A stretch of 51,690 nt of DNA from Minisyncoccia bacterium. GTDB lineage: Bacteria > Patescibacteriota > Minisyncoccia > Phycocordibacterales > UBA918. How positions within the stretch are numbered: the first letter of the stretch is position 1; each line of letters begins with the position of its first letter. Where the stretch lies: the NCBI GenBank assembly GCA_964229335.1, contig CAXRCZ010000005.1, positions 1-51,690 of the forward strand. The letters are read 5' to 3'. This document shows positions 40,802-43,514 of this stretch, piece by piece. The notes under the pieces were generated by a model, which was not told the DNA's origin, searched no databases, and saw nothing but the letters and a program-made list of their open reading frames with translations. A program made the position numbers and the translations under genes.

Positions 40802-42061
40802 CTATCCAATTTGATCTTTTCCGAAATAGTTTTGTAAGACAGGTGGAATAGCAATAGAACCGTCAGCTTGTTGAAAATTCTCCACCATAGATACGAGAAT
40901 TCGCGGTGTCGGAATAGCGGTACAGTTAAGCGAGTGGGCGTAGCGAAGCTGCCCCTCATCATCACGGTACCGAATGTTAAACCGGCGGGTTTGAAAATCA
41001 TGGAAATATGAGGCGGAACTGATTTCGCGATAGGTTTTTTCGCCAGGTACCCAGAGTTCGATGTCGTATTTTTTTACTTGTCCTTGTCCTAAGTCAGCGC
41101 CGCAATTTAATACAGTTCGATATGGAATATTGAGCGATTCGATAAATTCTTCCGTATTACGGTTGAGTTCTTCGTGATAGCGAACGCTTTCTTCATGAGA
41201 AGCTGGACACAGTACAACCTGCTCTAATTTATAAAATTCATGGACTCGAATTAATCCTTTGGTATCTTTGCCGTGACTACCAGCTTCACGCCGATAACAC
41301 GGAGAAAAACCGAGCCATTTCTTCGGGAGTCCTGATTTTTCAATTACTTCATCTGCGTAATAACCCATCAAAGGTACTTCGCTGGTGCCGGCTAGATAAT
41401 CGCCGTCTTGCGTCTGGTAGACATCTTCTGCTTCATTGGGAAGATGTCCGGTTCCATACAAATTACTTTTGCGGACGATGCTCGGTGGCAGAACTGGAGT
41501 GAAGCCTTTTTGTTGAAAAAAGTCATTAGCATAATTCCAAATTGCCCATGACAAACGAGCGCCATCACCTATTAAAAAATAACCGCGGAAGCCGTGAACC
41601 TTTGAGCCACGTTCAAGGTCGAGCATGCCGTGCTTTTCCATTAGTTCGATATGACTCTTTGATTCAAATGAAAACTCTCTATTATCACCCCAGGTACGCA
41701 ATTCTTCATTGTCAGCGTCACTCTCCCCGTCGGGGACAGTCATGTCGGGGATATTCGGCACTTGCAGCATCAGTGCTTGCCACTCTTCCATGACTGGTTT
41801 GAGTTTTTCCTCGAGAGACTGAATGTCTGTTTTGATTGATTGCATATCAGCAATCAATGCTTGTTTTTCTTCAGATGGAGCGGTGGCGATGGTGTCTGAA
41901 GCTTGATTTTGCTCAGCCCGCTTCCCTTCTAGCTCGGTCATGATTTCACGCCGACTATCATCGACTTTAACAAGCTGATCTAGATCAATGTCTATTCGCT
42001 TTTTTTTGGCTGCCTCTTTAACTAAATCGAGGTTTTCTCTAATAAATTTTATATCAAGCAC
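40802..42061 (-). CDS. serS: Serine--tRNA ligase
   Basis: MLDIKFIREN, GTSEVPL, CYRREAG..G.DT.GLIRVHEF.K.E, YREISSAS; GTG start; TATAAT at 42099-42094. Confidence 0.98.
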   Translation of the reverse strand: MLDIKFIRENLDLVKEAAKKKRIDIDLDQLVKVDDSRREIMTELEGKRAEQNQASDTIATAPSEEKQALIADMQSIKTDIQSLEEKLKPVMEEWQALMLQVPNIPDMTVPDGESDADNEELRTWGDNREFSFESKSHIELMEKHGMLDLERGSKVHGFRGYFLIGDGARLSWAIWNYANDFFQQKGFTPVLPPSIVRKSNLYGTGHLPNEAEDVYQTQDGDYLAGTSEVPLMGYYADEVIEKSGLPKKWLGFSPCYRREAGSHGKDTKGLIRVHEFYKLEQVVLCPASHEESVRYHEELNRNTEEFIESLNIPYRTVLNCGADLGQGQVKKYDIELWVPGEKTYREISSASYFHDFQTRRFNIRYRDDEGQLRYAHSLNCTAIPTPRILVSMVENFQQADGSIAIPPVLQNYFGKDQIG

Positions 42062-42122
42062 AGTGGTTCGACTGGTTAGTTATAGTAGGTCGTATTATAC
42101 ACCATTTGTATGGTGTAAATAT

Positions 42123-42161
42123 AAAAAGAAAGGCCCGTCGCGAATTGGTACGAAGGGCCTT
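42123..42161 (-). terminator. Terminator-like hairpin ending the large RNA candidate
   Basis: Minus strand AAGGCCC...GGGCCTT-TCTTTTTAT. Confidence 0.65.
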
Positions 42162-42599
42162 GGGGTTTCAGATCTGATGGTAAACATCCACGAACGGTGC
42201 GATTCTGCACCAGATTTTGCTAATCAAGCTAATCAATTTTGACTCTTTGGACGAGCCATAACGATAGCGATCGGCGATGATCGTGAATGATGTTCCAGAG
42301 GAAGGTATTTAGCTGTCGCAAGCGACGAGCGGATTATGTTTCCTTTGGAACGAAACTTCTTAGATGGGTAAACGAGCGGATGATAACTTCAATCCTATAA
42401 AAAAGTGGGTCAAAATTTGAGGTTTACACCCCAAGACTAACGATTTCAAGACTGACGTCACCAACATTATGCAATGCAACTGAATAGACGAGCTGAACAG
42501 CGCAAAGCAGTCGTTTGTATTTCCATCTCAAATCATCTGGAAAGAACTCAATCAACCGAAGTTGATTACCCGGACGAGTTCTCAACTTCTGATTCACCT
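42123..42599 (-). ncRNA. Unidentified large structured RNA candidate of about 475 nt
   Basis: Promoter TTGACA-17-TAAATT; terminator; cUUCGg hairpin; long-range nested helices; ten TCGT motifs; no credible ORF. Confidence 0.65.
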
Positions 42600-42605
42600 A
42601 CGCAT

Positions 42606-42634
42606 AATTTAGCAGATAGGCTATTCATTGTCAA
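42606..42634 (-). promoter_or_regulatory. Near-consensus sigma70 promoter
   Basis: TTGACA (42634-42629)-17 nt-TAAATT (42611-42606), back to back with the dprA promoter. Confidence 0.75.
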
Positions 42635-42650
42635 TGGTACACTGCAAGTA

Positions 42651-43514
42651 ATGGAATTCCCTATCAAAACTCTTCGTAGTAGTGTGTTTCCGGCTCTTCT
42701 TAAGGAAATACCCCAACCACCTGAGACGATGTATTATCGTGGCCAACTACCACCTCCCGAGATGACTCTACTCACGGTAGTTGGCTCTCGCAAGTACACA
42801 ACCTATGGTAAACAGGCAGTTAATGAACTGATTGGTGGACTAAGTGGATATAACATCGGAATAGTCTCAGGCTTAGCGTTAGGGATTGATTCATTAGCCC
42901 ACGAAGCAGCGCTAAAAAACAATCTATACACATTAGGTATTCCAGGTGGCGGCCTGAATGATAATGTACTCTATCCCAGCCAGCATAAACGGCTGGCCTA
43001 TCGCATACTTGAAGCTGGTGGATGTCTATTATCTGAGTTTGCCCCAGACTTTAAAGCTACTACTTGGTCGTTCCCTAAGCGCAATCGGTTGCAAGCTGGT
43101 ATTAGTCACGCCACGCTCCTTATTGAAGCGGCGGAAAAATCTGGCACCTTAATCACCGCTCGCCTAGCCACTGACTTCAATCGTGAGTTGCTAGTGGTGC
43201 CCGGAAATATATTCTCTAAAAATTCAGCTGGAGTGCACCAATTTCTAAAGCTCGGTGCAACGCCAGTAACAACAGCGGATGATATTTTGGATGCTTTGAG
43301 GATTGAAAAATCCGAATCAGTGAAAGAAATTGAGACCAGTAATCTATCAAGTACCGAAGAAAAGGTTCTCGCTGTACTACAATCACCCTGCCATCGAGAC
43401 GAATTGTTACGTTCTTTAGATTTACCAGTTTCTGAAGGCAATCGCTTATTAATGGAGATGGAATTGAAAAATTACATCGCTTCTGAACAGAATATATATC
43501 GATCTTTATTATAG
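42651..43514 (+). CDS. dprA: DNA-processing protein DprA
   Basis: VVGSRK.T.YG, IVSGLALGID..AH, FPKRNR, EAAEKSGTLITA, VPG; start MEFP at 42651 after TGgTACACT. Confidence 0.96.
   Translation: MEFPIKTLRSSVFPALLKEIPQPPETMYYRGQLPPPEMTLLTVVGSRKYTTYGKQAVNELIGGLSGYNIGIVSGLALGIDSLAHEAALKNNLYTLGIPGGGLNDNVLYPSQHKRLAYRILEAGGCLLSEFAPDFKATTWSFPKRNRLQAGISHATLLIEAAEKSGTLITARLATDFNRELLVVPGNIFSKNSAGVHQFLKLGATPVTTADDILDALRIEKSESVKEIETSNLSSTEEKVLAVLQSPCHRDELLRSLDLPVSEGNRLLMEMELKNYIASEQNIYRSLL

Follow-up and report, generated by a model that had tools for sequence, protein, structure and literature searches.

The window, a stretch of 51,690 nucleotides, comes from a Kaiserbacteria-like (Patescibacteria) genome of 741 kb in 13 contigs, rated 98% complete. 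Between the start of serS (42061) and the ATG of dprA (42651) lies a gap of 589 bp, filled by a unit that has a promoter-like site at its dprA end and a terminator-like hairpin at its serS end (Table 1). The G+C content of the unit is 43.6%, compared with 43.7% for the contig. An origin of replication at the locus was rejected, since there is no skew switch here and the sequence is absent in relatives. On the dprA side, a TG-G-TACACT element is found 7 nt upstream of the ATG (window 42635-42653); both here and in the relatives inspected, such an extended -10-like element precedes the dprA ATG by 6-7 nt, and dprA itself is likely leaderless, to judge from its sequence. Lengthening dprA upstream by 60 codons, to an ATG at 42474, was ruled out, as relatives start at the equivalent of 42651.

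Table 1. Features in and around the dprA-serS gap (window positions; hairpins and domains are predictions from the single sequence)
Feature	Position	Strand	Remarks
serS	40802..42061	-	flanking core gene; TIGR00414 above cut-off
serS's own TG-TATAAT	42094..42101	-	from sequence; downstream of terminator; similar elements in relatives
Intrinsic-terminator-like hairpin and U-rich tail	42121..42161	-	stem-loop 42161-42130, -17.3 kcal/mol, z -4.5
Putative transcript, ~475 nt	42123..42599	-	ends placed from promoter and terminator
Branched domain, predicted	42185..42289	-	0.89-0.99; local z -4.05, window chosen post hoc
Extended hairpin, predicted	42292..42351	-	0.95-0.99; bulged C inside one UCGU copy; local z -5.3, window chosen post hoc
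13-nt direct repeat pair	42325..42384 (42325-42337 and 42372-42384)	-	holds two of ten UCGU copies
Long irregular hairpin, predicted	42381..42463	-	helix probabilities 0.78-0.99
57-codon ORF	42424..42597	-	GTG 42597, ~+3, 8 nt past -10; 53 codons from TTG 42585 after AGGTGA; no homologue
5' hairpin, predicted	42558..42589	-	pair probability 0.96; covers TTG of short ORF
Sigma70-type promoter-like site	42606..42634	-	TTGACA (42634-42629), 17 nt, TAAATT (42611-42606); divergent from dprA promoter
dprA	42651..43514	+	flanking core gene; TIGR00732 above cut-off; relatives begin at equivalent codon

The sequence-only reading of this DNA had proposed a minus-strand TTGACA-17-TAAATT promoter, a closing GC hairpin with a T-rich tail and a separate TATAAT for serS, and all three are present. 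The promoter-like site matches the consensus at 10 of 12 positions; the chance expectation for the promoter scan alone is 2.1 sites of this quality, but relatives have a TTGAC-type site at this position too (27 of 51 filled slots, our own included). Among 58 such promoter sites in the genome, nine have no nearby ORF of 70 or more codons, and by inspection the serS-dprA site alone among these nine opens 400 nt or more of unassigned sequence. A simple terminator scanner made no call at the hairpin; of the 51 filled slots, 43 have a hairpin followed by a U-run close to serS (a raw count, without shuffle control). The TG-TATAAT of serS lies 3' of the terminator. Recurrence of promoter and terminator in the relatives' slot, together with the -10 element of serS, supports the claim of a transcription unit standing apart from serS, and on this sequence evidence the unit is likely transcribed on its own.

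The sequence of the unit matches nothing catalogued. Comparison with Rfam 15 at E values up to 10 gave no match at gathering score and three junk matches (E 4-7), in agreement with the earlier statement that hallmarks of T-box, RNase P, tmRNA and SRP RNAs are missing; none of the CsrB/Rsm, OLE/ROOL/GOLLD, tmRNA, RNase P, T-box/riboswitch or group I/II intron models in Rfam matches the unit. It is also intergenic and interrupts no gene, unlike a group I or II intron, and a group I P7-like pairing spotted by eye was dropped for want of support from a model. Elsewhere in the window Rfam finds only four tRNAs, and in the wider genome the tmRNA sits on contig C6 and an RNase P-like RNA on contig C7 (73 bits, below gathering score). 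Models of 6S and small SRP RNA match neither the locus nor any other part of the genome at E values up to 1; with no second copy to make it redundant, a very divergent form of either is conceivable here. Contig C7 is mirrored about its middle: the RNase P-like RNA and ten tRNAs each appear twice, in inverted order. The mirroring probably arose during assembly and makes the contamination estimate too high.

Searches at the DNA level found a homologue of the unit in none of 127 genus genomes. The same search with the genome's RNase P RNA, a positive control, succeeds in 122 of the 127, so a conserved housekeeping-type RNA would very likely have shown, and a fast-evolving one would not. No homologue was detected in 60 relatives (18 gave short matches only, E 0.01-0.1), in 400 genomes of the order (one chance-level match of 48 nt, inside a protein gene), in 400 of the class (one chance-level match of 31 nt), in phages (one match at E 0.5) or in plasmids. 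Two single-sequence covariance models, a weak model type, covered parts of 171 and 146 nt and left about 150 nt of the unit outside; neither scored in the 127 genus genomes under strict filters or in 59 loci, and with filters off they gave only hairpin-level scores (at most 21 bits) in 23 slot loci. Among metagenome loci reached through the serS N-terminus, the element is in none of the best 80 of 557 (best identity 73%). Motif-pair scans returned 112 viral and at least 119 genome stretches, none homologous by nhmmer, while a hairpin-pattern scan of viral sequences gave no match and a scan of viral contigs for dprA found nothing. No paralogue was found in the unit's own genome, so by these searches it is not a multi-copy repeat, and four DNA sequencing runs of one study, one of which may be its source, list no variant inside it. 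The closest serS relatives are 79% identical in protein. As no homologue was found, there is no covariation to assess.

What defines classes of the OLE, ROOL and GOLLD type is a structure that many species have conserved. The unit resembles these RNAs (PMC12286853) in standing alone, in its length of several hundred nucleotides, in a multi-domain predicted fold and in lacking an ORF of note; it differs in having no Rfam match, homologues or covariation, and its folding strength is moderate. The proposal of an ornate conserved RNA class finds no support in the genus-wide DNA and covariance-model searches, given the recovery of RNase P RNA by the control. No description of such an RNA or of its slot was found in the literature covered, a coverage that takes in few subscription papers and preprint supplements. 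The main text of bioRxiv 10.64898/2026.10.21.760802 does not mention Patescibacteria or CPR, and its supplements or database could hold a matching cluster.

Of the 119 genus genomes matched by the serS N-terminus, four were truncated and excluded; DNA upstream of serS in the remaining 115, together with that of our own genome, gives 116 loci. In 36 of these the start of dprA was not located within the flank (nine of them through an unaligned serS start in a short piece), and the census is of the other 80: 29 have less than 200 bp between the genes and are empty, 33 carry an ORF of 100 or more codons, and 18 have neither. TTGAC-type promoters are found in the first 130 nt of 15 of the 18 ORF-poor loci, our own included, and of 12 of the 33 ORF-bearing ones. 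Gathering serS-dprA intergenic regions from relatives had been suggested for a covariation test, but none of the 115 relatives' loci holds the unit; they carry unrelated cargo or nothing. The ORF-poor cargoes share little past terminator-region matches, and none matches the unit. Several consist of a small ORF behind a Shine-Dalgarno sequence (48-89 codons in the six examined); others, about 110-370 nt long, are folded and lack such an ORF. Two of the other ORF-poor cargoes were searched for among 128 genomes, and each was found only in its own; Rfam gave nothing at gathering score on 20 relatives' slot loci. We conclude that the dprA-serS gap is a variable slot with contents that differ among relatives. 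Because promoter and terminator recur while the cargo changes, we infer that these two elements belong to the slot and that the cargo is species-specific.

Similar arrangements have been described elsewhere. Oliveira et al. 2017 (PMC5635113) report hotspots of gene turnover without mobile elements, where exchange proceeds via recombination at flanking core genes. The slot is like these hotspots in its variable content between two core genes and in a lineage that bears competence genes; the counts made there are of protein genes within species, whereas the slot varies across a genus and about one-fifth of its occurrences lack an ORF of 100 codons. It also recalls phage-type 'morons' and accessory cassettes, which are likewise placed between conserved genes with their own promoter and terminator (here at the sequence level), but there is no prophage seen, no composition shift and no clear protein cargo in our unit. 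We consider the slot a more useful result than the unit, since one and the same syntenic position may be empty or be occupied by protein genes, by small ORFs or by folded units that are unrelated and lack long ORFs. Such varied contents make it a natural place to ask whether the species-specific ncRNAs of ultra-small bacteria behave as accessory genes or are decaying cassettes.

Several of the relatives' cargoes deserve a record of their own. Five tightly folded ones (L051:2190-2510 on the minus strand, the second unit of L391, L042, L396 and L392) have no long ORF, body z scores of -3.0 to -6.7 and no Rfam match at gathering score, and that of L051 is a singleton in the genus. In the slots of L036, L037 and L039, small ORFs behind Shine-Dalgarno sequences encode an aromatic, hydrophobic N-terminus and have RGPP, RDPP or RSPP close to where their shared part ends, a pattern that seems to resemble ribosome-arrest motifs. 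Directly after the slot promoter, L029 and L031 have a similar short leader motif (CAAGTGGG ... CCCCCAATT) and then differing cargoes. The cargo genes of L402, L412, L414, L428 and L434, each about 230 codons long, are homologous, and 200 nt or more can be aligned before the shared coding part; this upstream stretch is possibly a conserved leader RNA.

All folding figures are single-sequence predictions, with z scores taken against shuffles. The whole unit scores -3.64 in the sense direction (minus strand) and -2.11 in antisense (plus strand). Its body without the terminator gives -3.4 to -3.7 in three sense runs compared with -1.8 in antisense, and body plus terminator -5.6 in one run of 30 shuffles; the controls, the genome's tmRNA and RNase P RNA, give -3.3 and -9.7. 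Scores of -3.6 or lower are reached by 6 of 51 random genome windows; of 62 coding windows, just 3 reach -3.5. Random genome windows beat their shuffles on average (mean z -1.5). The signal lies in the 3' half of the unit, the first four 120-nt windows of the 5' half scoring between -1.3 and +0.4. The inverted repeats that had been read as hairpins all exist, but the cUUCGg hairpin among them has a predicted pair probability of 0.02 because the alternative 5' hairpin of Table 1 wins. Two nested long-range helices that had been proposed (42159-66 with 42428-35, and 42235-43 with 42409-17) have a mean pair probability of 0.0000, and forcing them costs 20 kcal/mol.

The unit thus folds better than shuffled controls, but so do cargoes of another kind. 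Among the 33 protein-coding slot cargoes, 20 were scored, on 300-nt pieces; their mean z is -2.0, with six at or below -3 and five at or below -3.6, the level of the unit (three of these five strongest are homologues of each other). Nine ORF-poor cargo bodies, our own included, average -3.1 in sense and -1.6 in antisense, a set from which one further body is missing because it was unparsed and in which L029 may hold a 113-codon ORF. As protein-coding cargoes fold well too, folding favours selected structure only mildly, and in these genomes a promoter, a terminator and a folding z near -3.5 are together not enough to tell an ncRNA cargo from a protein-coding one. On these models, a folded non-coding product is plausible.

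Our preferred reading, held tentatively, is that the unit is this species' slot cargo, a folded RNA of about 475 nt that is transcribed alone and most likely acts as a protein-binding decoy or scaffold. Placed in the variable slot between its promoter-like and terminator-like sites, it would be copied by RNA polymerase into an RNA that ends ahead of the promoter of serS, which the terminator would insulate. The RNA is predicted to fold into four local domains, and its role as an accessory decoy or scaffold would depend on folded shape rather than on a loop motif or on mRNA pairing, a guess made by elimination. Outside the locus, the genome matches the unit exactly over 14 nt at most, compared with 13-18 nt for shuffles, and Hfq was not found; with mRNA pairing thus unsupported, and a sponge acting through loops little supported, binding of protein by folded domains is the likeliest mode, should the RNA function at all. 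Cargo may be swapped by homologous recombination in the dprA and serS flanks after DNA uptake. Both comEC and dprA are present in the genome, and competence genes are conserved across the CPR, with natural competence demonstrated in Saccharibacteria (PMC10633639). Taken as a single sequence, the unit makes a modest case as a singleton RNA candidate. A folded RNA specific to this species is credible but unproven, and we do not present it as a new class of conserved RNA. A bolder form of this reading makes the Kaiserbacteria dprA-serS slot an RNA-cassette locus at which species exchange unrelated, tightly folded ncRNAs just as they exchange accessory proteins. The UCGU-repeat 475-nt RNA would then be a functional decoy or scaffold that evolves as fast as a conflict gene at a host or phage interface; we regard this reading as a long shot.

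The unit could instead be neutral cargo or a relic, in which an orphan accessory gene has decayed together with its leader and what is left is still transcribed but has no function, with folding a general tendency of slot cargoes; we consider this rather unlikely, though worth serious weight. The unit is a singleton, like the two other ORF-poor cargoes tested, its folding is equalled by one-quarter of the protein cargoes scored (5 of 20), its motif excess is marginal (see below), and the frame that begins at the presumed 5' end has four stops in 158 codons, all of which would suit a decayed gene. However, a resemblance to protein is missing from every frame: with stops read as X, the six frames gave no match to a family of Pfam or PHROGs or to any of 243 slot ORFs, and one frame compared with 1.84 billion representatives gave no match. 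Codon scores of the four-stop frame (-0.09 to -0.16, compared with +0.13 for genes and -0.24 for off-frames), the perfect consensus of the -35 element and the intact terminator also argue against a relic.

The gap had been described as non-coding, and it indeed has no recognisable protein gene, but a 57-codon ORF had been missed. We reasoned that the unit might then be the mRNA of a small protein of 53-57 residues, started from a leaderless GTG near +3 or from the AGGTGA-led TTG and followed by a folded 3' tail of 260 nt. Sibling slots do hold Shine-Dalgarno-led ORFs of 48-89 codons, the adjoining dprA looks leaderless, and the ORF begins at the presumed 5' end of the transcript. Yet an ORF of this size arises in 10% of shuffles, its codon score is at the 2.4th percentile of real genes and in the top 16% of off-frames, and its TTG is predicted to be buried in the 5' hairpin. 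Nor was a homologue of the ORF found; the one viral tblastn match to it was discarded as off-frame in an unrelated 287-aa gene. We judge a small-protein mRNA unlikely.

The UCGU repeats had suggested a sponge analogous to CsrB, in which ten UCGU sites would titrate a sequence-specific RNA-binding protein. Plus-strand ACGA does occur at exactly the ten positions reported, against two copies of TCGT, but the enrichment is marginal. Ten UCGU copies compare with a mean of 3.4 in 40,000 dinucleotide shuffles (single-word P 0.0005), and when the best of all 256 4-mers is the yardstick the look-elsewhere P is 0.053. The genome-wide rate predicts 1.8 copies, and as the excess is larger by this measure than against shuffles, the enrichment may be real but small. 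GCUCGU occurs four times (P 0.06 for any 6-mer to do so). The claim of an exact repeat stands, ATCCGCTCGT being present twice in the genome with both copies in the unit; shuffles contain some repeated 10-mer with P 0.12. Top 4-mers in nine other slot units have z scores of 3.3-4.3, compared with 4.1 here.

CsrB, CsrC, RsmY and RsmZ (PMC7652899) are likewise stand-alone RNAs of a few hundred nucleotides with a repeated short word, and the CsrB motifs sit in loops or single-stranded regions. The word differs here, GGA-containing words are absent from the five most enriched 4-mers of the unit, and the UCGU copies are mostly predicted to be paired: the ensemble leaves a single copy fully unpaired and five partly so, with the other four mostly in helices. 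In addition, CsrA/RsmA (PF02599) was not found in this genome, rated nearly complete. Despite the copy number, the 10:2 strand bias and the four GCUCGU copies, a CsrB-like multi-site sponge is thus highly improbable. Least credible of all is a regulatory leader of serS (an attenuator or T-box-like element with readthrough from the upstream promoter), for although the unit is on the strand of serS with a terminator just before that gene, and the 42159-66 helix shares positions with the foot of the terminator stem, this helix has a probability of about 0 and none of the T-box and riboswitch models matches. Moreover, serS is provided with a -10 element of its own, and all 115 relatives examined lack the sequence ahead of serS.

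A second unit of like build lies at 35123-34850 on the minus strand of the window, where TTGACG-17-TAAACT is followed by about 225 nt and then by a hairpin and T-run; its sequence is richer in G+C and has no sense ORF of 30 codons.
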